Assembly: GCA_020633895.1 (NCBI GenBank)
Contig: JACKCT010000005.1
Span: 1 to 64,000, forward strand
Direction: 5' to 3'
From: Deltaproteobacteria bacterium
GTDB lineage: Bacteria; Lernaellota; Lernaellaia; JACKCT01
Length of the DNA stretch: 64,000 nt
Shown piece after piece: positions 16,130 through 49,240 of this stretch. A program made the translations under genes and the position numbers. How positions within the stretch are numbered: position 1 is the first letter of the stretch; every line of letters begins with the position of its first letter. A model generated the notes under the pieces. It did not search any database. It was not told the origin of the DNA and was given only the letters and a program-made list of their open reading frames with translations.

Positions 16130-16925
16130 AGGCGCCTTGCGGCGCGCGTTGACCGTCGCCGTCGCGCTGGGGCTGTTGGCCGCCGGATGCGCCAAGCAGC
16201 CGCCGTCCGCCGCGAAGCCCATGGACCTGCCGGCCGACACGGATTTCGGCGAGGCGATCGTCGCGCGGGCCAAGCCGTACACCGCGATGGGCAAGGTGAA
16301 GATCGAGGGGGCAAACCTGCCCTGGGCCGACGCGGATATTCTGGTGCATCCCGAGCAGGGAGTGCGGATCGACGCGTTCTCGCCGGTGATGACGCCCATC
16401 GCGTCGGTGGCGCTGCGTCCCAACGGCGCCGAGTTCCTCAACTTCCGCAATCTGGTGCTGACCAAGGGCGATCCCGCCGCCGTGACCGAGGCGATGCTGG
16501 GCGTGCCCATGGATACGCGGGCGCTGCCGTGGCTGCTGGCCGGAAGCCTGCCGCCGATGGGCGACGGATGGCATCTGCAAAAAATGCGTCCCGGCATGGA
16601 AGCGGGAGAAGTGCTGATGCAGGCCTACGGCGAGGACGTGGTCTACGATGCGATCGTCGTGCGCGAGACCGGCGCGGTGCGTCGTTTCGAGGCGCGCTAC
16701 GGCCAACTCGGTTCGGGCGATCCCTATCTGACCGTCGAGCTTTCCGCGCACGACCCCGGCGAGATTCCCGTCCCCCACGATTTGCGTCTGGTCACGGATC
16801 AGCGGCCCGAGGCGTTGCTGATTCACCTGAAGAAAATCGATTTTTCCGACATGCCGCTGGATATCGAGTTCGTCATCCTGCCCAACAACGACACCCACGT
16901 CATCGACCTGAATGCCCGGCGCTAG
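16107..16925 (+). CDS. Outer-membrane lipoprotein, LolB/LolA-like
   Basis: Lipoprotein signal (…ALGLLAAGC). The …GVPMDTRALPWLLAGSLPP… block resembles the LolA/LolB signature, and the gene follows a TPR lipoprotein as lolB does in several proteobacteria. Identity is an inference. Its start overlaps the TPR gene by 23 nt. Confidence 0.45.
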   Translation: MTTTRSNKGALRRALTVAVALGLLAAGCAKQPPSAAKPMDLPADTDFGEAIVARAKPYTAMGKVKIEGANLPWADADILVHPEQGVRIDAFSPVMTPIASVALRPNGAEFLNFRNLVLTKGDPAAVTEAMLGVPMDTRALPWLLAGSLPPMGDGWHLQKMRPGMEAGEVLMQAYGEDVVYDAIVVRETGAVRRFEARYGQLGSGDPYLTVELSAHDPGEIPVPHDLRLVTDQRPEALLIHLKKIDFSDMPLDIEFVILPNNDTHVIDLNARR

Positions 16926-17922
16926 GCCCGAATCCCTGCCCCGAACATCCGCGGCCGACGCGCCGCTGCTGAGCGTGCGAGACCTGTCGGTGCAATTTGC
17001 CGTCGACGGCCGGGTCGCCGACGCGGTGTCGGGGATCGATTTTTCCATCGCGCCGGGCGAGCGCTTCGGTTTGGTGGGCGAGTCGGGATCGGGCAAATCG
17101 GTTTCGGCGCGGGCGGTGATGGGACTTCTGCGCGGGCGCGGACTGCGTGTCGGCGGACAGGCCCATCTGGCGGACGCGGGGGATCTGTTGTCGATGAGCG
17201 GCGCGGCTCTGCGCCGTCTGCGCGGGCGGGACGTGGCGATGGTCTTTCAGGATCCCATGACCTATCTGAATCCGACGATGCGCGTGGGCGAGCAGATCGC
17301 CGAGGTGCTGCGCTACAAGCAGGGCGCGAGTCGGGACGCGGCACGCAAGGCGGCGGTGGAATTGCTCGAACGCGTGCGCATTCCCGACGCGGCGGCGCGG
17401 GCGCGATCTTATCCGTGGCAGTTGTCCGGCGGGATGCGCCAGCGGGTGCTCATCGCCCAGGCGCTGGCGTGTCGGCCGCGATTGCTCATCGCCGACGAGC
17501 CGACGACGGCCCTGGACGCGGACGTGCGCGACCGCATTCTCGAATTGCTCGACGAATTGGTCCGCGAACTGGGCACGGCGGTGTGGCTGATCAGCCATGA
17601 TCTGCATGTGGTCGGGTCGTTTTGCTCGCGCACGGCGGTGATGTATGCCGGACGCATCGTCGAGGCGGGGCCGACCGAGCGCGTGATGGAAAGCCCGGCC
17701 CACCCGTACACCCGCGCGTTGCTGGCCGCCTCCAAGGCGCTGGACGACGGGCGCATCGAGCCGGTTATCTCCGGCCAGATCCACCCGCCCACACGCCATC
17801 CCACCGGCTGCCGCTTCCATCCCCGCTGTCCCGAGGTGGACGCGAAGTGCGCGGCGACAAATCCGGATTTCGTCGACGTTGTCGAGGGACACCGGGCGGC
17901 TTGTTGGAGACTGCAAGGCTAG
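16912..17922 (+). CDS. ABC transporter ATP-binding protein, oligopeptide/dipeptide (DppD/OppD) type, orphan
   Basis: Walker A GESGSGKS, signature LSGGMRQR, Walker B LLIADEPTTALD, and the C-terminal oligopeptide-type extension (…HPYTRALL…CRFHPRCP…). No cognate permease or substrate-binding genes lie within 20 kb. Overlaps the preceding gene by 14 nt. Confidence 0.85.
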   Translation: MPGARPESLPRTSAADAPLLSVRDLSVQFAVDGRVADAVSGIDFSIAPGERFGLVGESGSGKSVSARAVMGLLRGRGLRVGGQAHLADAGDLLSMSGAALRRLRGRDVAMVFQDPMTYLNPTMRVGEQIAEVLRYKQGASRDAARKAAVELLERVRIPDAAARARSYPWQLSGGMRQRVLIAQALACRPRLLIADEPTTALDADVRDRILELLDELVRELGTAVWLISHDLHVVGSFCSRTAVMYAGRIVEAGPTERVMESPAHPYTRALLAASKALDDGRIEPVISGQIHPPTRHPTGCRFHPRCPEVDAKCAATNPDFVDVVEGHRAACWRLQG

Positions 17923-17923
17923 T

Positions 17924-17990
17924 GGGTGCCACACTTTCACGTCGACACCGTCGACGGGAAGGCGTGAACTTTCAGAGCAGCGATCACATC
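17924..17990. repeat. Family F1 element, half copy, fused to a CTTCAGAGCC repeat array
   Basis: GGGTGCCACACTTTCACGTCGACACCGTCGACGGGAAGGCGTGAACTTTCAGAGC… starts 2 nt after the ABC ATPase stop. Contains the GTCGACACCGTCGAC palindrome. Confidence 0.55.
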
Positions 17991-18015
17991 CCTTCAGAGC
18001 CCCGACCACATTCCT

Positions 18016-18228
18016 TCAGAGCCCCGAACGGTAGTGAGAGGTCCGGTACGATTCGGTACGCCGCGTACGTTGTTCGGTTTATCGCGGGTTCGGTGCCGGG
18101 GCGAGGCCAACCGCTCACTACCCACCTTCGCCAAGGCTGCGGCGGGCAAACGGTTCGCGGCTTTGTTGGGTCGGGATCGCCATCGACAACGTTCGAGTTT
18201 GACCCCTCACTACCGTTCGGGGCTCTGA
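18016..18228. repeat. MITE-like element with 26-bp terminal inverted repeats (TCAGAGCCCCGAACGGTAGTGAGAGG … CCCCTCACTACCGTTCGGGGCTCTGA)
   Basis: The terminal inverted repeats match 25/26. Internal sequence (…CCAACCGCTCACTACCCACCTTCGCCAAGGCTGCGGC…) is homologous to the 37081-37230 and 49150-49240 copies. The right TIR overlaps the last 19 nt of the ankyrin gene. Confidence 0.65.
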
Positions 18229-19292
18229 CACGTCTCATTCCGCCGCTCGAGCATGTCCGCCGCCGCGTCATGTCCCGCCTTGCGCGCTTCGTCGGCGGGG
18301 GTGCGTCCGGAGGCGCTGACGATGGCCCGATCGGCGCCGGCGTCGAGGAGCAAGCGGATCACGTCGGCAAAACCGCGAAACGCCGCCCGGTGCAGCGGCG
18401 CGTTGCCGAATCGGTCGACGGCGTTGACGTCCGCGCCCCGCGCGATCAGATCGCGGCAGATCGACGTGTGCCCCATCAACGCCGCCACGTGCAGCAGCGT
18501 GATTCCCAGATGATCCACCGCGCGCACGTCCACGCCGTGCGTCATCAGATATTCGGCCATCGCCGCGTCGTGCATGGCCGCCTCTTGATGCAGCGGCGTC
18601 TGCTCGTCGTCGTTTCGCGCGTTGACGTCCGCGCCGCTTTCGAGCAATTCCCGCACCCGCGCGACATCGCCCGCCGCCGCCGCGTCATGCAGTGTCAGCG
18701 GTTCGGCCGTCGCCCCCGCCAATTCCAGCACCCGCGCCGCCTCCGTCCTCCGCAGTCGCCGGGCCTCGTACAGGGGCGTGCGCCCGTCGGCGTTTGTCGC
18801 GCCCACGTCCGCGCCCCGGTCGATCAATTTCGCCACCGTGGACGCATGGCCCATCATCGCCGCCAGGTGCAGCGGCGTCTGTCCGCGCCCGTCGGGGGTT
18901 GTCGCCTTCGCCCCACGTTCGAGGAGCAAGTTCGTCGCCTGCGTTGCGCCGAGAGCAGCGGCCTTGTGCAACGGCGTGGCGCCGAATCGGTCGACGGCGT
19001 GGGGATCGGCCCCGGCGGACAACAGCAACGACGCGACCGGCAGGCGGTCGTCCCGCGCGGCCCGATGCAGCGCCGTCGCCCCGTTTTTGTCGGTCCCGTC
19101 CAGCGGCGCGCCCAGGTCGAGCAGCACCGTGACCATCTCCAGGTTGTCGTCGTCCGTCGCCCGATGCAGCAGCGGCCGGCCCTTGGCGTCCGTGTCGTCG
19201 ACGCGGGCATGGCGCTCCACGACCCGTCGCCGAAGAGCTTCCGCGTCCCCCTCGTCGAGAAGGCGGTCCAGGCCGGACTCGCCGTGCGTCAT
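18210..19292 (-). CDS. Ankyrin-repeat protein (about 9 ANK repeats)
   Basis: Repeated …G.TPLH.AA..GH..vv.LLl..GAd.na.d… units throughout its 360 aa. The ATG at 19292 overlaps the upstream stop (TGATG). Its last 6 codons lie inside a repeat-element terminal inverted repeat. Confidence 0.85.
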   Translation of the reverse strand: MTHGESGLDRLLDEGDAEALRRRVVERHARVDDTDAKGRPLLHRATDDDNLEMVTVLLDLGAPLDGTDKNGATALHRAARDDRLPVASLLLSAGADPHAVDRFGATPLHKAAALGATQATNLLLERGAKATTPDGRGQTPLHLAAMMGHASTVAKLIDRGADVGATNADGRTPLYEARRLRRTEAARVLELAGATAEPLTLHDAAAAGDVARVRELLESGADVNARNDDEQTPLHQEAAMHDAAMAEYLMTHGVDVRAVDHLGITLLHVAALMGHTSICRDLIARGADVNAVDRFGNAPLHRAAFRGFADVIRLLLDAGADRAIVSASGRTPADEARKAGHDAAADMLERRNETCQSPER

Positions 19293-20098
19293 CAGTTGTC
19301 GCCGCCCAGAATGATCGGCAGCCCTTCCTTGCCCTGGCCGATGACGACCACCTTGGCGTTCGGGCTTTGGGCCAACTCCAGCGTCGCCTCGATGCCCTTC
19401 CACTTGAGCAGATCCTCGTTGAGGCCTTCGGAGACGATCTTCTGGAAGTCGGCGATACCCCGGGCCTCCACCCGCTTGCGTTCGGCCTCCAAGGATTCCT
19501 TTTCCAGCACGAATTTCATCTTCTCGGCTTCCTGTTTCATCGCCAATTTGCGTTCGATGGCTTCCGTGACCTGTTGGGGGAAGTCCATCGCCCGCAGCAT
19601 GATCGCTTCGACGACGATATGCTTGCCGTCCAGCGCGGTGGTCAAATTATCGAAGATCCCTTTTTGGATTTCGTTGCGTTTGGTGTAGGCGTCGATGCTG
19701 GAAAAACCCGCGATCACGTCCCGGACCTGGTTGCGAATCGCCGGTCCGATGAGGACTTCGTAGTAGTTGGGTCCGACCTCCTGATGCAGCTTCGCCACCT
19801 GGTCGGGGTCGGGACGATATCGGACCGAGATGTCGGTCTTGATGGTCAGTTGGTCTTCGGTCAGCACCGTCAGGGTCTCGGTGGCGTCCTTGACGCGAAC
19901 GTCATAGAGATAGACCCGGTTCCAGGGGGCGACCCAGTTCCAGCCTTCTTTTAGGTTTTCGTTCACGTCCGTACCGGTGCGCCAGTTGAAGTACACACCT
20001 CGGGCGCCGGCCGGAACGGTCTTGCCGCAGCCGGTCAAAAGGCCCAGGGAGACGACAAAAAGGGAGATTGCGATCCATTGCCGTGTGCGGTGGCTCAT
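19292..20098 (-). CDS. SPFH/band-7 (prohibitin/stomatin-like) lipoprotein
   Basis: The ATG at 20098 is preceded by GGAG and gives MSHRTRQWIAISLFVVSLGLLTGC (lipobox). The band-7 core …EVLIGPAIRNQVRDVIAGFSSIDAYTKRNEIQ… is followed by a coiled-coil tail. Confidence 0.85.
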   Translation of the reverse strand: MSHRTRQWIAISLFVVSLGLLTGCGKTVPAGARGVYFNWRTGTDVNENLKEGWNWVAPWNRVYLYDVRVKDATETLTVLTEDQLTIKTDISVRYRPDPDQVAKLHQEVGPNYYEVLIGPAIRNQVRDVIAGFSSIDAYTKRNEIQKGIFDNLTTALDGKHIVVEAIMLRAMDFPQQVTEAIERKLAMKQEAEKMKFVLEKESLEAERKRVEARGIADFQKIVSEGLNEDLLKWKGIEATLELAQSPNAKVVVIGQGKEGLPIILGGDN

Positions 20099-23664: not shown

Positions 23665-24080
23665 TCAGTCCCTCCTTGTCACCCGCAAGGGGGTCGCGCG
23701 TTTCGGGATGGGGAGGCGAGGGCTGATCCGGGGCCGGGCGGCCGGCGAGTCCATCAAAAAACCCCGACGTCGGTGGCGACGCGGGGCTCGGGGGATTCGG
23801 TTTCCCTGGAGCAAACCCGCTCTTTCACCCGAAGAGCGCTGACGGTTTGCGACGGACAAGGCAGTTTTCTGGCTCGGAGCTTTGGGGGCTCCTTACAGTG
23901 GCGGGACCGCTCCGGACTTTCACCGGTCTTCCCTGCGGGAGGAATCATTTCCTCCACCACATGCCCGTCGAACGATTAGATTGTCGTCGGCGCTTCTATC
24001 ACGGCGCTGACGGCGGGTCAAAGGGTATTCCCGTTGCCGATCTCACAGGCGGGACGGATCGAGCGAAGGGGCGGGATCGA

Positions 24081-37026: not shown

Positions 37027-37080
37027 CGGCGCCGCAACGCTACACTGACCGAACGGAGCCCCGACCCTGCGACCAATGTC

Positions 37081-37230
37081 GGGCGCCGCACTTTCGCGAC
37101 CCGAAGGTGGAGCGAAGGTGTGATTTTCCCACTCGCGACCTCACCCTTTCAGAGCCGCGCACGGCTCGCCAAGCCGCAGCCTTGGCGAAGGCTGGTTGTA
37201 AGCGGTTGGGTTCGAATTTGTGCGAATCGT
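37081..37230. repeat. Composite repeat: F1 half-copy plus CTTTCAGAGCCGCG plus GCCTTGGCGAAGG module, inverted relative to 18016-18228
   Basis: GGGCGCCGCACTTTCGCGACCCGAAGGTGGAGCGAAGGTGTGA…CCCTTTCAGAGCCGCGCACGGCTCGCCAAGCCGCAGCCTTGGCGAAGGCTGGTTGTAAGCGGTTGG. Lies between the convergent EamA and motB genes. Confidence 0.6.
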
Positions 37231-37243
37231 CTGGTCTCTCAGC

Positions 37244-38254
37244 TTACTCGGTCGCGGCCTCGACATCCCCTTCGGCCTCGGCGGTCGCCTCGGCGACGGA
37301 CTCGGAGGTGACGGTCACGCCCAGGCTCCCCATCTCGCCGGTCGGCACCGTCGTGTCGATAAGCAGACGCGGGTCCACGGGGCGCAGCGGGTCGGGATCG
37401 ATGTCGCCGGGACGGCGCTCCTGCAGCAGGCTTTGGCGCGTCGGCTTCATGCGGATTTCCACGCGACGATTTTCCTGGCGACCGTCGGCGGTGTCGTTCG
37501 AGGCGACCGGGCGCGTGTCGCCCATGGCCGCCGCGCTGTAGCGCGTTTCGTCGCCGGACGCGAGCGCGAGCATGCGTTTGACGACCGACGAGGAACGGGC
37601 CGCGGACAGGGACCAGTTGTCGGCCATGGAACCGCCTTCGGGCGGGCGATTGTCGGTATGCCCCTCGACCGAAACGCTCAGGTCATAGACGGACGCCGCT
37701 TCGGCGATTTTCGCCAGAAGAGGATTGGCGTCGGGGCTGACCTCCGTGTCGCCGGGCCCGAAGGTCAGCGACTCGGGCAGACGCACCCGAATGCCTTCCC
37801 GATCCGCCGAGAAGACGATCTTTTCGTCAATCCCGAAGCGGTTGGTCAGGTCCACCAGGCTCACCCAGGTCTCATCCTCGCCCACACGCTCGCGACGCAC
37901 TTCCTGGACCAGTTGGCCCAGGGGCGTGTTGCCGGTGTTGCGAACGTCGGTAAGGTCCGACGTGGTGGTGTCCGGCTCGGCGGAGAGATTACGGGCGACC
38001 TGGAAGAGCAACTGGATGCTGGGAATGAACGTCGGATTGGCCGGCACCGGCTCCTCGGGCTGGATGGCAGCGTAGACCAGCTCCGAGGCGGCCTGGGAAA
38101 TAGTCCGGGCTTTCTGGTCGTCCAGGGACGACATGGTCAGCAACAAGACGAAGAAGGTGAGCATCAGCGTGATCAGATCGCTGAAGGTCAGCATCCATCC
38201 CAACGGATCCGGGCCGTCGGCGGGGACGATTTTGACGTTCTTGTTCTTGCTCAT
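37244..38254 (-). CDS. motB: MotB-like stator subunit (OmpA-like peptidoglycan-binding C-domain), channel Asp present
   Basis: The N-terminal TM …WMLTFSDLITLMLTFFVLL… carries the conserved Asp. The C-terminal …HTDNRPP…NWSLSAARSSSVVKRML…NRRVEIRM is an OmpA/MotB domain. Confidence 0.8.
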   Translation of the reverse strand: MSKNKNVKIVPADGPDPLGWMLTFSDLITLMLTFFVLLLTMSSLDDQKARTISQAASELVYAAIQPEEPVPANPTFIPSIQLLFQVARNLSAEPDTTTSDLTDVRNTGNTPLGQLVQEVRRERVGEDETWVSLVDLTNRFGIDEKIVFSADREGIRVRLPESLTFGPGDTEVSPDANPLLAKIAEAASVYDLSVSVEGHTDNRPPEGGSMADNWSLSAARSSSVVKRMLALASGDETRYSAAAMGDTRPVASNDTADGRQENRRVEIRMKPTRQSLLQERRPGDIDPDPLRPVDPRLLIDTTVPTGEMGSLGVTVTSESVAEATAEAEGDVEAATE

Positions 38255-39087
38255 CGACCTTCGTCCGGGACCGCTTCGGGCGCCTTGCTGGGCCCTCGGA
38301 AGGGGTTGCGCAAGCCGAAGGCGGTCCAGAAATCCCGACGTTGGGTAGCGGCCTTGGCGGCCATCGCCTGACGTCGGCCCTCGCGGATGTTGTTGAGGGT
38401 GACGACGACGCGCCGGTTGCTGGTGGTCAGCAGGTTCGGGCTGTTGATGTCCACTTGTTCGTCGTTGGTGCCCTTGGCGGTGACGCGCAGTTTCTCCGCC
38501 TTGACCCCGGCCGCCATCAGCGCCCGCGCCGCCGCGATGGAGCGATTCATGGACAGATCCCAGGGCGAGGCCGAGCCCGGCTCGTCCGCCTCGGCATAGC
38601 CGGTCAGCTCGATGCTCAGGCCGTATTCCCGCGCCGGGGCCGTGACGACTTCCAGCAGATCCAAGGCCGATTCGGACAGGGTGTCGCTGCCCGGCGCGAA
38701 CATCAGCGCCTCGGGAAAGGTGATGTTGATGTCATAGTCGTTGGGCACGGCGAGCATACGCACGCGCATCGCCTTGGCTTCCATCGCCGAGTGGATCTTG
38801 CGGTAGACCGGGTCGTGAATGACCGACAGGGTCTTGATCCATTCGTTGACGTTTTCCAAGGCGTCGTCGCTGGTGAACTTGAGCAGGCTGTATTGGAAGG
38901 GCATGCCGCCCTCGACGATGCCGAAGGTGCCGACCAGGGAGTTGAGGGCCTTGTGCTTGCGCGCCTCGTCGATCACCGCGATGGAGTTGAGCAGAATGAA
39001 AAAGCACAGCAGCAACAGGAACAGCGAAGTCACCAGAACGATGTTGGGGTCGCTCTCCCGTTCCTCGTAGATCTTTTTCTTGCCCAT
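38251..39087 (-). CDS. MotB-like stator paralogue lacking the conserved channel aspartate
   Basis: TM …IVLVTSLFLLLLCFFILLNSIAV… has no Asp. OmpA-like C-domain (…NRSIAAARALMAAGV…NRRVVVTL). The ATGA at 38251-38254 overlaps the downstream motB. Confidence 0.7.
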   Translation of the reverse strand: MGKKKIYEERESDPNIVLVTSLFLLLLCFFILLNSIAVIDEARKHKALNSLVGTFGIVEGGMPFQYSLLKFTSDDALENVNEWIKTLSVIHDPVYRKIHSAMEAKAMRVRMLAVPNDYDINITFPEALMFAPGSDTLSESALDLLEVVTAPAREYGLSIELTGYAEADEPGSASPWDLSMNRSIAAARALMAAGVKAEKLRVTAKGTNDEQVDINSPNLLTTSNRRVVVTLNNIREGRRQAMAAKAATQRRDFWTAFGLRNPFRGPSKAPEAVPDEGR

Positions 39088-39099
39088 GGCGCGCTCCGG

Positions 39100-39867
39100 C
39101 TATTTGTCGAACTGGGACTTGCGCATATTCGGCGGCAACAGGCTGTTGAGGCGCGACTCGATGACGCGGGGGTTGTCGCCTTTGGAGATGGATTCGACGC
39201 CCACCATGATGATGGTGTTGTAGAGGACCTCGGAGGAGCTGCGCGTGCGCAGCTTGCCGGCCAGGGGGTTGAAGACCACGTTGGCCAGCATGGCGCCGTA
39301 AAACGTCGTCAACAGGGCGACGGCCATGGCGGGACCGATGGCCGACGGGTCGGCCATGTTCTGGAGCATCTGCACCAGGCCGATGAGCGTTCCGATCATG
39401 CCCATGGCCGGGGAGATGGTGCCGGCGGTTTGGAGGATATCGGCGCCTTTCTTGTGCCGGTCGGCCAGCGCCTCGATCTCCGATTCCATCTGGGAGACGA
39501 TCGCCTCGGTTTCCGAACCGTCCACGGCCATCATCAGGCCCTTCTTGAGGAAGGGGTCCTTCACGTCCTTGCCGGCTTCCTCCAGGGCGAGGATGCCTTC
39601 GGTGCGCACGAGCTGGCCGAACTTGACCAGGCGATCGACGTATTCGTCGGGAGCGAGATCCCGATTGAAAAAGCCTTTGCTGACCACCTTCGCCAGGCCG
39701 GCCACGTCCTTGAGCGGATAGGAGACCAGCACCACCATCAGCGTACCCAGGACGGTGATCAGCACCGACGGCACGTCAATGAAAATCGCCAGCGAGCCGC
39801 CCAGCAGCATCGCGGTGGCCACCAGGCCGAAGGTTCCGACCATACCGATTAGAGTGGCGATATCCAT
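39100..39867 (-). CDS. motA: MotA/TolQ/ExbB-family proton-channel stator subunit
   Basis: 255 aa, 4 TM helices, with conserved …GTISPAMGMIGTLIGLVQML… and …ALLTTFYGAMLANVVFNPLAGKL…. Confidence 0.85.
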   Translation of the reverse strand: MDIATLIGMVGTFGLVATAMLLGGSLAIFIDVPSVLITVLGTLMVVLVSYPLKDVAGLAKVVSKGFFNRDLAPDEYVDRLVKFGQLVRTEGILALEEAGKDVKDPFLKKGLMMAVDGSETEAIVSQMESEIEALADRHKKGADILQTAGTISPAMGMIGTLIGLVQMLQNMADPSAIGPAMAVALLTTFYGAMLANVVFNPLAGKLRTRSSSEVLYNTIIMVGVESISKGDNPRVIESRLNSLLPPNMRKSQFDK

Positions 39868-40078
39868 TTGTTCGATCCCTCGTGCGTGTTGCCGTTGTTG
39901 GGCGCCGTTTTTCTATTCCCGGCGCGTCGATCTTTCATCGTCGAACGGGGCAAAGTCCTAAAGAATGGAAAAGAGGGCCGATGGGCGAAATGTGGAATTC
40001 GTGCGGCTTGATCCGGACCGGCCCGTCGCCTATTGTGGGCGGCCCGTTGAGACGCAAGCCCCGTGAAGGATCGTCCGT

Positions 40079-42496
40079 TTGTCCGAACAAGTCCAAGATC
40101 CCATCCTGCGCGACCTGAATCCCGAGCAAAAACAAGCGGTTTTGCACGACGCGGGGCCGTTGTTGATCTTCGCCGGGGCCGGGTCGGGCAAGACGCGGGT
40201 GCTCACGCGGCGCATCGCCTATCTGGTGGCCCGGCGGGGGGTGGATCCCTATCGCATCCTGGCCGTGACATTCACCAACAAGGCCGCGGCCGAAATGCGC
40301 GAACGCATCAGCGGCATGCTCCCCGGCGTGGGCGAGAAGGTGTGGGTTTCGACCTTCCACTCGTCCTGCGCGCGCATCCTGCGGATGGACGGCGACAAGA
40401 TCGGCTTCGACCGCTCCTTCACCATCTACGACGAGGCCGACCAGCGGGCGCTGGTCAAGGAACTGCTGCGTCGGGCGCAGATCGACCCGACGGTGCTGGA
40501 CCCGCGTCGCGTGCTGTCGGTTTTTGACGAGGCGAAGAACAATCTGACGAATCCGGCGGACCTGGCCTCGGACCACTTCACCGGCCCGGCGCGGGATCGG
40601 TTTTTGCGCATCGCGGAGATGTATACCAAGGAGCTCAAGGCCAACAACGCGATGGACTTCGGCGATTTGATCGTCAACACGGTGGAGCTTCTTCGCACCG
40701 ATTCGGAAGTGCGGGAGGCCTATCGGCGGCGCTTCGAATATATTCTTGTGGACGAGTTCCAGGACACGAACGCGGCCCAGTACACCCTGCTGGATTTGCT
40801 GCTGGGCTCCCACCGCAATCTGTGCGTCGTGGGCGATGACGACCAGAGCATTTACCGCTGGCGCGGCGCGAATATCGAGAACATCCTGGGCTTCGCCGAC
40901 CAGTTTCCCGAGGCGACCAAGATCATCCTGGGGCGCAACTACCGTTCCTCCTCCAACATCCTGGCCGTCGCCGACGCCTTGATCCGACGCAACACCGGCC
41001 GAGAGATCAAGAACCTCCAGACTTCCAACGACCCGGGCCGCCCCGTGCGTCTGTTTCGCGCCGACGACGAATACGACGAAGCGCGCTACGTGGCCGACCA
41101 GATCCGGGATCTGGTCGAACGCCTGGGCATCCCGCCGGGCGACATCGCCGTGTTTTATCGCATCAACGCCCTGTCCCGCGTGTTCGAAGAAGAGTTGATG
41201 CGACGAGGCACGCCGTTTGTCGTCGTGGGCGGCACGCGGTTCTACTCCCGCAAGGAGATCAAGGACGTGCTGGCCTATTGGCGCGTCATCGCCAACCCGG
41301 CCGACAGCGTCAGCGCCAAGCGCATCATCAACACGCCCTCGCGCAAAATCGGCAAGACGACGGTGGAGCGAATCGACGACTTCGCCGCCGAGCAGGGTTT
41401 GCCGTTTCTTGTCGCCGCGCGACGGATGGTCAAGACCGAAGAACTGCCCGCCGCCGCGACGAAGGCCGTGGCCGGGTTCATCGAAATTGTCGACGAGTTG
41501 ACCGCCGATTCGCTGCGTTCGTCCTTGCCCGACCTGCTGGAAAAAACCCTGCAACGCACCGGCTACCGCAAGATGCTCAACGAGGACAAGTCGGTGGAGG
41601 CGCTGTCGCGCAAGGAGAACCTGGGCGAGTTGGCCGAGGCCGTGGCCCAGTACACCAAGCGCTCGCCCGACGCGGTGCTGGCCGATTATTTAGAAGCGGT
41701 GACGCTCACCGAGCAGGCCGACGAGGCGGCGGACGTGGACAATTCGGTGCGCCTGATGACGTTGCACAACGCGAAGGGGCTGGAGTTTCCGGCCGTGTTC
41801 ATGGTGGGCATGGAGGAGGCGGTGCTGCCCCATTCCCGTTCGATTTCCTCGGGCCTGACCGCCGAGATCGAGGAGGAGCGGCGCCTGGCCTACGTGGGCA
41901 TCACCCGCGCGAAACGTTATTTGACGCTCACCTGCGCGGCGCGGCGTCGGTCCTATTCCGGCCTGCCGACGTACGCCCGGCCCAGTCGTTTCCTCGACGA
42001 AATCCCCGAGGACATGCTCGACATCCAGGGCTTCGCGGCCAATCCCTTCGGCTCGCCCCTGGGCGCCGAGGAGCCGGGGGGAACGGTTTACGAATTCGAC
42101 CAACCCCGGGGGCGCAACTTCGGATCCGGCTCGCGTTCCTTCGACCGGCCGCGCCCGTCGACGCCTCGTCCTTCCTACGCCTCGAACGAACAGGCCACGC
42201 GTGTCGCGCGGCGTCGTCCCGGCGATTCTTCAAGGCCCACCGGATTTGTCCCCGCCGGGGAAAAGGTCCTCGACTACGGCGCTCCCGCGAAAAAAACCGC
42301 GACACCCTCCGCGAGCGGAGCAGGCAAGGGCGGCGGCGCGCTGCGCGTCGGGCAGAAGGTCCTGCACGCCAAATTCGGCAACGGCGAGGTGCTCTCCGTC
42401 GTCGGCCAGGGCCCCAAGGCCAAGGTCATGGTCCGCTTCGGCTCGGTCGGCGTGAAGACGATGTTCCTGCAATACGCGAATCTGGAAACGGTGTAG
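40079..42496 (+). CDS. uvrD: ATP-dependent DNA helicase PcrA/UvrD
   Basis: Motifs I (AGAGSGKT), Ia, II (DEFQDTN), III-VI, and a C-terminal Tudor-like tail (…GQKVLHAKFGNGEVL…); 805 aa. Confidence 0.92.
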   Translation: MSEQVQDPILRDLNPEQKQAVLHDAGPLLIFAGAGSGKTRVLTRRIAYLVARRGVDPYRILAVTFTNKAAAEMRERISGMLPGVGEKVWVSTFHSSCARILRMDGDKIGFDRSFTIYDEADQRALVKELLRRAQIDPTVLDPRRVLSVFDEAKNNLTNPADLASDHFTGPARDRFLRIAEMYTKELKANNAMDFGDLIVNTVELLRTDSEVREAYRRRFEYILVDEFQDTNAAQYTLLDLLLGSHRNLCVVGDDDQSIYRWRGANIENILGFADQFPEATKIILGRNYRSSSNILAVADALIRRNTGREIKNLQTSNDPGRPVRLFRADDEYDEARYVADQIRDLVERLGIPPGDIAVFYRINALSRVFEEELMRRGTPFVVVGGTRFYSRKEIKDVLAYWRVIANPADSVSAKRIINTPSRKIGKTTVERIDDFAAEQGLPFLVAARRMVKTEELPAAATKAVAGFIEIVDELTADSLRSSLPDLLEKTLQRTGYRKMLNEDKSVEALSRKENLGELAEAVAQYTKRSPDAVLADYLEAVTLTEQADEAADVDNSVRLMTLHNAKGLEFPAVFMVGMEEAVLPHSRSISSGLTAEIEEERRLAYVGITRAKRYLTLTCAARRRSYSGLPTYARPSRFLDEIPEDMLDIQGFAANPFGSPLGAEEPGGTVYEFDQPRGRNFGSGSRSFDRPRPSTPRPSYASNEQATRVARRRPGDSSRPTGFVPAGEKVLDYGAPAKKTATPSASGAGKGGGALRVGQKVLHAKFGNGEVLSVVGQGPKAKVMVRFGSVGVKTMFLQYANLETV

Positions 42497-42504
42497 CCGC
42501 CCCA

Positions 42505-42623
42505 TCCTTCAGAGCCGCGACCGTATCCTTCAGAGCCGCGACCGTAAGGGAGCGGGTTGATTCGCCTTGAAAGACGAGACCGCCTCTTTGCGATGTCCGA
42601 GCCGCGACCTGTAGGGAGCGGTC
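42505..42623. repeat. Tandem 21-nt repeats TCCTTCAGAGCCGCGACCGTA (×2 perfect) plus a degenerate third copy, ending in the AGGGAGCGGG motif
   Basis: Starts 9 nt after the uvrD stop. The unit CAGAGCCGCGACCGTAAGGGAGCGGGTTG recurs at about 48870 and 49034. Confidence 0.7.
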
Positions 42624-42689
42624 TTATATTTGTTGTCGGAAATGGGCGCGGCTGCGCAAGACGTCGGGGCCGCCACGGCCCTTGCGGTC

Positions 42690-48841: not shown

Positions 48842-49240
48842 TGGATGTCCGAGCCGAGATCAATTCTTTCAGAGCCGCGACCGTAAGGGAGCGGGTTGGT
48901 TCGAGGGATGAAAACGATCGGGTGCCACACTTTCGCGAGGACGAATGTCCGAGAGAAGGTGTGAATGCGATGTCCGAGCCACGAGCCGTAGCGAATGGTC
49001 TTTCGTGCGTTGTCCAGGGCGATCACGCCGAAACAGAGCCGCGACCGTCAGGGAGCGGGTTGGCGGCGCCCTTGCGAAAATCGTTCGTTATTTACGAATC
49101 GAAACGCTCGACAACCCCGCGCTGACGCTTGGGGCTCAGAAAGGGCGGGATCGCTCCAATTGTCGAACGCTTTGGACCGCTTGCTGACTAGCCTTCGCCA
49201 AGGCTACGGCTTGGCAAGCAGCGCGCGGCTCTGCCGGCAT
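48842..49240. repeat. About 400-bp intergenic repeat mosaic (GATGTCCGAGCC ×2, CAGAGCCGCGACCGT(A/C)AGGGAGCGGGTTGG ×2, F1 half-copy, GCCTTCGCCAAGGC module)
   Basis: Every sub-module has at least one other copy elsewhere in the window. Occupies the convergent gap between the secreted-protein gene and pilX. Confidence 0.65.
48920..48980. repeat. Family F1 element, half copy (inverted orientation)
   Basis: GGGTGCCACACTTTCGCGAGGACGAATGTCCGAGAGAAGGTGTGAATGCG matches the reverse complement of the 3' half of copy B. Confidence 0.6.

Follow-up and report, generated by a model that had tools for sequence, protein, structure and literature searches.

In the parts of their paper that treat class 3, Quentin et al. 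2018 (BMC Genomics 19:475, PMC6006769) describe class 3 HUH-Y1 (TnpA_Y1) genes as flanked by atypical REP-like structures with a CnGA foot, which have been amplified alongside these genes in Solibacter, Legionella and Planctomycetes. According to the same parts, class 3 is a small class, represented mainly in Planctomycetes, Acidobacteria and Proteobacteria, and about 600 CnGA-foot copies are present in Solibacter usitatus. Table S1 of that paper lists CAGAGCCGCGACCGTTAGGGAGCG and CAGAGCCGCGACCGTCAGGGAGCG under class 3 for S. usitatus and CCGAGCCGCGACCGTAAGGGAGCGGA, with the structure .....((((..((....))..))))., for L. pneumophila. The rule applied there treats consecutive units no more than 150 nt apart as REP clusters or BIMEs, and further experimental analyses of class 3 enzymes are called for.

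Two other groups of repeats share features with the locus described here. The E. coli-type REP/BIME and the Pseudomonas REPINs, which are associated with RAYT (class 2 TnpA_REP), are short extragenic hairpins with a 5′ guide tetranucleotide; they form opposite-orientation clusters with accessory motifs, prefer gene 3′ ends and convergent gaps, and show no target duplication. In other REP families, individual REPs are known to abut or overlap gene 3′ ends between convergent ORFs (PMC3733652). Bacterial MITEs, such as Correia/NEMIS, RUP, ERIC and Nezha, and likewise the Rickettsia RPEs, are small non-coding inverted-repeat structures beside or within genes, which can overlap a gene end or insert in frame, contribute codons and fold in the transcript.

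The window, by which we mean the whole 64,000-nt stretch of DNA that was analysed, has a G+C content of 63.6% and belongs to a MAG named 'Deltaproteobacteria bacterium', a host unlike those given for class 3 REP-like repeats in the relevant parts of PMC6006769. At 18016–18228, it contains a 213-bp stretch with inverted arms at both ends, which a sequence-only reading had taken for a MITE-like element. We estimate at roughly three in four the probability that this stretch is a BIME/REPIN-like cluster of class 3-type REP-like units rather than a MITE bounded by terminal inverted repeats (TIRs); its consecutive units lie within the 150-nt rule. For the locus itself little changes, as the ankyrin tail concerned comprises at most five residues and the arrangement is common to a relative with 93% identity. 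The value of the result lies in classification: an apparent TIR-bounded transposon would become a REP-like cluster of class 3, the least-studied branch of HUH-Y1.

The inverted arms and their repeat family

A repeat search of the window delimited the arms at 18016–18043 and 18201–18228; they are 28 nt each, complementary at 27 of 28 positions (96%) and separated by 157 nt. The arm 26-mer has just two sites in the window (0 and 1 mismatch allowed), and two matches were obtained in none of 100 shuffles. The 26-bp terminal inverted repeats proposed earlier are therefore real and bound 213 bp as claimed, although they are slightly longer than 26 bp. Each arm is a self-contained unit, of a subtype termed R′ (CGAACGGTAGTGAG), of a dispersed repeat of ~30 nt, termed R, which mostly occurs singly. 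R, with the sequence (C)CTTCAGAGCCGCGACCGTAAGGGAGCGGGTTGG, consists of a CAGA foot and a weak hairpin, CCSC-GA-MC-loop-GK-GA-GSGG; in the window it takes the form CAGAGCCGCGACCGTAAGGGAGCGG at 42530 and 48870 and CAGAGCCGCGACCGTCAGGGAGCGG at 49034. The left arm (18016–18043, + strand) has the foot CAGA(G) and the hairpin sequence CCCC-GA-AC-GGTA-GT-GA-GAGG, and does not form the hairpin because of one C:A mismatch in the outer stem. The right arm (18201–18228, − strand, sense to the ankyrin mRNA) has the same foot and the fully paired CCCC-GA-AC-GGTA-GT-GA-GGGG; its predicted fold, ((((..((....))..)))), has an energy of −3.7 kcal/mol, which is weak for a single-unit hairpin.

The family was reached through the REP/RAYT literature and comparison with Table S1 of PMC6006769. 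The core of R is essentially identical to the class 3 core in the published table (CAGAGCCGCGACCGTNAGGGAGCG), with the same CnGA foot and the same weak hairpin, ((((..((....))..)))); as given in the relevant parts of that source, the published repeats have a high copy number and an extragenic location, in a host range of Acidobacteria, Planctomycetes and Proteobacteria. The arms, written together as CAGA-G-CCCC-GA-AC-GGTA-GT-GA-G(G/A)GG, combine the CnGA foot of class 3 repeats with a structure-preserving variant of the hairpin. They keep the R fold by two compensatory changes, CCGC/GCGG to CCCC/GGGG and CC/GG to AC/GT, and their combination of a CCCC/GGGG outer stem, an AC/GT inner stem and a GGTA loop differs from the entries of the published class 3 table, where it is not listed. 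Judged from the sequence, the locus adds a new member to a known, barely characterised REP-like family, and with it a new subtype in which the structure is preserved.

Pairing in the hairpin is maintained across the family. In a set of 41 distinct copies drawn from several phyla, standard pairs make up 99.2% of pair cells. Pairs 12–27 and 16–23, which were left free to mismatch in the search pattern, change only by compensatory double substitutions or stay almost fully paired. Pair 12–27 is GC in 31 copies, CG in eight and another combination in two, whereas pair 16–23 is CG in 25 and AU in 16, with no other combination; the C:A of the left arm accounts for one of the two unpaired cells. The covariation score was reached by none of 500 shuffles, and slid controls were 34–52% paired.

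R differs from the E. coli-type REP and its relatives in several respects. Its foot is CnGA and theirs is GT[AG]G; its stem of 4+2 bp, with a GA/GA internal loop, is much weaker than the 7–20 bp of REPs; and its core hardly changes from phylum to phylum, in contrast to REPs, which commonly vary among species. By published association, the enzyme of R would be of class 3 and thus different from the RAYT of REPs. Additionally, long-form units, partial 'stutter' copies and copies on phage contigs, all described below, are features that do not appear in the parts of PMC6006769 concerned with these repeats.

These properties of the arms bear directly on the reading as a classical MITE, in which a 213-bp non-autonomous IS derivative, with its 28-bp TIRs bound by a DDE transposase, would have inserted whole into the 3′ end of the ankyrin gene. 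The long, near-perfect arms (27/28) fit this reading, as do the size and the position at a gene end: inverted arms of 28 nt around a 213-bp unit without coding capacity fall in the range of ~15–30-bp TIRs and 70–300-bp non-coding elements. Moreover, the two arms resemble each other more than either resembles any other R copy in the window, a likeness that would also be compatible with arrival or homogenisation of the pair as a single REPIN-like or MITE-like unit. However, the IS-matching TIRs, target-site duplications and whole-unit recurrence that distinguish MITEs were not found here. The flanks, ...CCACATTCCT| on the left and |CACGTCTCAT on the right, share no abutting direct repeat, so the check for a target-site duplication was negative. 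No second copy of the 213-bp unit was detected in the window, or in public DNA searched with the arm 20-mer; the arms and the internal module instead recur separately within the window. The arm is in itself a REP-like unit, mostly single and present in many phyla, a third R copy lies inside the stretch, and partial copies abut the left arm.

Searches outside the window point the same way. The arm 20-mer had no match in 185,579 species genomes, a collection to which the source genome does not belong, and its three matches in metagenome contigs were chance or unrelated, two being coding in a 54% GC organism and one R-like in a 42% GC organism. No recurrent transposase-like ORF was shared beside family copies at 44 loci from other genomes, among the matches listed. 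Taken together, these observations make the classical MITE highly improbable. The idea of a small non-coding structure with inverted arms, belonging to a mobile or unstable family and encoding the end of the ankyrin gene, survives; its identity as a MITE in the usual sense does not.

Repeat clusters between convergent genes

Pattern and profile searches located about 10 R copies (full or long-form), together with partial ones, in four intergenic regions of the window. Four full copies (42528, 42599, 48868 and 49034) share the plus orientation, one degenerate copy is at 48976, and partial 5′ copies are at 17971, 17993 and 42507. The clusters occupy four of nine convergent intergenic regions and none of 15 divergent or tandem ones (Fisher p about 0.012).

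The cluster with the inverted arms lies in the gap at 17923–18209, which separates the convergent genes for an ABC-transporter ATPase of the oligopeptide type (16912–17922, + strand, to the left; ORF with Pfam ABC_tran and oligo_HPY matches) and the ankyrin protein (− strand, to the right). The stop of the ATPase gene immediately precedes the cluster, whose order is module X, two 22-nt partial copies, R′(+), long-form R(−) and R′(−). Module X (GGGYGCCRCACTTTCRCG...GAAGGYGTGA; 17924–17970, + strand) is an accessory repeat recognised by alignment; its three copies, at 17924–17970, 48921–48967 and 37080–37125, are hairpin-like and always lie just upstream of an R copy. The two partial copies of the R 5′ half (TTCAGAGCAGCGATCACATCCC and TTCAGAGCCCCGACCACATTCC; 17971–18014, + strand), found by repeat search and nhmmer, adjoin the left arm.

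The third R copy of this cluster, inverted and of the long form, spans 18098–18170 (− strand), with its 5′ half at 18162–18150 and its 3′ half at 18121–18109, as delimited by nhmmer, alignment and blastn. At 18109–18162 (−), its loop carries an insertion of ~28–32 nt with the hairpin AGCCTT-GGCG-AAGGNN. When the 18098–18170 region was aligned with 37143–37218 and 49166–49240, the insertion recurred; by blastn, 18107–18143 matches 37209–37173 in inverted orientation (89% over 37 nt), and 18125–18143 matches 49192–49210. The related internal modules noted earlier at 37081–37230 and 49150–49240 are thus genuine matches, which arise because the loop insertions of long-form R recur; they are part of the third inverted R copy and not separate modules. 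In the long-form units at 18109–18162 (−), 37148–37210 (+) and 49176–49233 (−), we also observed a 31–32-nt apical-loop insertion with the perfect hairpin AGCCTT-GGCG-AAGGCT.

The remaining clusters combine the same components. The second (37074–37218, + strand), between convergent genes, consists of module X and a long-form R; the third (42507–42625, + strand), downstream of a UvrD-like helicase gene, contains one partial and two full R copies. In the fourth (48868–49240), R(+) at 48868 is followed by module X, then by a degenerate R(+) at 48976 and a full R(+) at 49034 and, in minus orientation, by the long-form R at 49176–49233. Within the 213-bp stretch, the gaps between units are 66 nt (18043 to 18109) and 39 nt (18162 to 18201). 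Opposite-orientation units no more than 150 nt apart, accompanied by accessory motifs (module X and the partial copies), are the arrangement expected of a REPIN or BIME.

A stricter version of this arrangement is a doublet of the REPIN type, in which two inverted R′ copies and their spacer would form the replicating unit, moved as a hairpin single strand by a Y1 transposase, with the long-form R nested later. The near-identity of the arms is consistent with it, and the 213 nt fold as one hairpin closed by the arms (17990–18250 folded, either strand, z about −3.5). Furthermore, R′ forms compact 72-nt hairpin doublets in Phycisphaeraceae MAGs (loci L011, L013–L015, L021, L028–L030, L033, L034, L046, L047 and L050), with a DNA fold of −25 kcal/mol and z = −6.7, and a locus of the relative GCA_020440635.1 (L126) also has inverted R pairs. 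Nevertheless, only one such doublet was seen here, its unit was not encountered a second time, the 157-nt arm spacing is long for a REPIN and far above typical REPIN spacers, and most R copies in the window are single or in the same orientation. We therefore consider the doublet unlikely as the unit of replication. As a separate observation, some of the Phycisphaeraceae doublets lie inside a repeat of ~160 nt (L021 1437–1596 and L029 4551–4710, 97% identical).

Under the preferred reading as a cluster of individual class 3-type units, and by analogy with REP/RAYT and IS200/IS605, R copies would spread as single-stranded DNA through the action of a class 3 Y1 transposase. The gene for this enzyme would lie elsewhere in the genome, and by the same analogy the CnGA foot would guide the enzyme. 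The lack of a target duplication fits, because single-strand transposition of this type would leave none. Neither the 64-kb window nor 125 other loci yielded a gene for such an enzyme in scans limited to HUH/Y motifs, those of class 3 HUH-Y1 being NHVH, W[TA] and YV[VI]xEQ. GC skew is positive across the window, and for eight of the 12 R-type copies the strand with the foot and hairpin is the G-rich (+) one. Such a bias would fit a single-strand preference for the lagging template, for which a sample of 12 is too small a test.

The ankyrin gene and its 3′ end

The ankyrin-repeat gene (18210–19292, − strand; ORF and Pfam, ATG at 19292) encodes 360 aa, of which the Pfam ankyrin matches extend to residue ~338. 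Its product ends in ...LERRNETCQSPER*, that is, ...RRNETCQSPER, with the stop TAG at 18212–18210 followed by an in-frame TGA. The right arm takes in this stop and the codons for Q-S-P-E-R, but of the Cys codon it includes no more than the third base (18228). Thus, the sequence-only reading was right that the repeat encodes the stop and the end of the protein, but it supplies five codons and not six. The TAG straddles the junction of loop and inner stem in the right arm, with TA coming from the GGTA loop and G from stem 2. At the other end of the gene, the ATG overlaps the stop of the upstream SPFH/prohibitin gene (TGATG, 19290–19294), and this overlap suggests translational coupling of the ankyrin and SPFH genes.

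The original proposal, in which an insertion at the ankyrin 3′ end remodelled the C-terminus, is plausible. Either an R copy would have landed on the 3′ end or the ORF would have drifted into an R copy, so that translation would now end at the TAG straddling the R′ loop and inner stem. For the protein, the consequence is probably neutral, because the tail consists of at most five residues beyond the last ankyrin repeat. A repeat that supplies the stop of a gene is ordinary behaviour for repeats of this kind. In a side observation, an R copy on the Legionella adelaidensis replicon NZ_LR134420.1 (L059 3001–3026) overlaps the 3′ end of hemB and gives its last three codons, the stop TAA being the complement of the GTTA loop of R.

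Relatives of the locus were compared through the neighbouring gene. A search with the ankyrin protein returned only generic ankyrin proteins with no more than 41% identity, and orthologous loci were reached via SPFH. The SPFH protein has a 100% identical counterpart in a MAG that bears the name 'Deltaproteobacteria bacterium', and its homologues at 65–70% identity include one in Candidatus Lernaella stagnicola (67%). The sister MAG GCA_020633875.1 matches the window at 99.8–99.9% and carries an identical 213-bp unit. Apart from this MAG, the only ankyrin orthologue found is in GCA_020440635.1 (L008), with 93% nucleotide identity across the locus. There the right arm stands at the same place with two substitutions and provides the same stop (...RRDETRQSPGR*), and the contig ends inside the element. 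Among the relatives examined, no orthologue without the repeat element was found. In relatives with 65–68% SPFH identity (L054, L055 and L057), the ankyrin gene is absent downstream of SPFH, and the gene is therefore a lineage-specific addition.

Two further observations concern contig ends at this position. In GCA_020633875.1, contig JACKCU010000002.1 ends at 18228, the last base of the right arm, and JACKCU010000030.1 starts at 18229, with neither overlap nor gap (L053 and L004); in Logan, two contigs terminate close by, at 18240 and 18213. The break at 18228/18229 could be repeat-induced, a population insertion polymorphism or a post-assembly split. Annotators should take into account that in these lineages such repeats often contain the ends of genes and of contigs.

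The position of the clusters raises the question of a role for the host. They might be a non-mobile stack of stem-loops that the host has selected, and conserved, because it ends transcripts in both directions or stabilises the mRNAs of the ABC-ATPase and ankyrin genes. That clusters lie only between convergent genes is consistent with such a role. An intrinsic terminator scan of the gap gave one weak match, compared with 0.5 expected, and none that was convincing. The right arm and the stop have been kept in the relative with 93% identity, and the compensatory changes preserve the hairpin. In contrast, R clusters vary between genomes that are 99.4% identical in the flanking genes, a sign of turnover and not of conservation, and the same 25-nt core occurs in unrelated phyla and on phage contigs, a distribution more readily explained by the work of a dedicated enzyme than by independent selection. 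Additionally, no Rfam family matches: at the gathering threshold, the whole window yielded no family for R and only a cobalamin riboswitch, and permissive Rfam searches of two R clusters gave chance-level matches only. We therefore judge selection by the host to be distinctly improbable as the primary explanation. It is compatible with the preferred reading, a cluster of class 3-type units, as a secondary, exapted function, in which the stacked hairpins might, speculatively, form 3′ stem-loops that end or stabilise the two convergent transcripts. The riboswitch is at 23843–23978 (− strand; RF00174, 49.4 bits, E = 2.5e-9).

Turnover and distribution of the repeat

A second region of GCA_020440635.1 (L126) offers a direct comparison with the window at 37244–42524. 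The genes are 99.4% identical, but the R clusters at both ends (L126 1–165 and 5419–5640, compared with 37079–37243 and 42497–42689 of the window) are not alike in the number, the type or the orientation of their copies. In the window, motB is followed downstream by module X and a long R(+), whereas two R copies, both in minus orientation, stand there in GCA_020440635.1. On the downstream side of the UvrD-like helicase gene, one full R in GCA_020440635.1 corresponds to a partial and a full copy in the window. The turnover of R clusters is therefore much faster than that of their flanks. Gene order in GCA_020440635.1 changes right after the R copy downstream of the helicase gene, and R clusters thus coincide with a rearrangement breakpoint, the break in synteny falling at an R copy.

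With a degenerate pattern for R and R′, at least 44 loci were found in the species genomes; the matches listed include Bryobacterales/Solibacter, Terriglobia, Phycisphaeraceae, Isosphaeraceae, Planctomycetales, Thermoguttaceae and Anaerolineaceae. In the plasmid collection, R was present only in replicons of Legionella adelaidensis, with no transposase nearby, and cultured phages gave no meaningful R match. In the literature, a search for the sequence of the repeat gave nothing but a match to an unrelated primer.

Several features of the wider family were noted in passing. The R core occurs at 66 viral-contig loci of IMG/VR (L060–L125), and one of these contigs, L093 (38–4201), encodes matches to phage major head, portal and scaffold families. 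Partial copies of 15–22 nt, comprising the foot and the left half-stem, are stacked directly 5′ of 44 of 182 full copies in other genomes. These stutter stacks were seen at 26 loci from several phyla and from phage contigs (e.g. L012, L042, L051, L066, L074, L079 and L101), and in the window at 17971–18014 and 42507–42527. The near-identical core across phyla, the stutter copies and the presence on phage contigs are points of somewhat higher interest than the locus itself. For the study of class 3, the material now includes a subtype with a preserved fold, long-form units, partial 5′ copies, fast-turnover clusters at a synteny break and copies on phage contigs.

A bolder proposal would join these observations into one account. 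The class 3 REP-like family would be an active, horizontally spreading single-stranded DNA element, possibly carried by phages, whose loops (GTAA, GTGA, GGTAG, or TTA on the complement) repeatedly give host genes their stops; the pair at 18016–18228 would be a mobilisable REPIN-type unit, and the contig break in the sister MAG would reflect an insertion polymorphism in a natural population. We regard this account, taken as a whole, as doubtful.

Two viral-contig loci, L066 (1366–1659) and L100 (13157–13450), contain five-unit tandem R arrays with a 68-nt period. A CRISPR array was considered for both and rejected because the intervening 'spacers' are identical; in each array, a segment made up of a partial copy, a full copy and a tail has been duplicated in tandem. 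Finally, an R′-like copy, TTTTGAGCCCCGAACGGTAGTGAGCGGG (L002 1689–1711), is intergenic in a 42% G+C organism, where it lies among other short dispersed repeats, and the R family may reach beyond the high-G+C phyla listed above.
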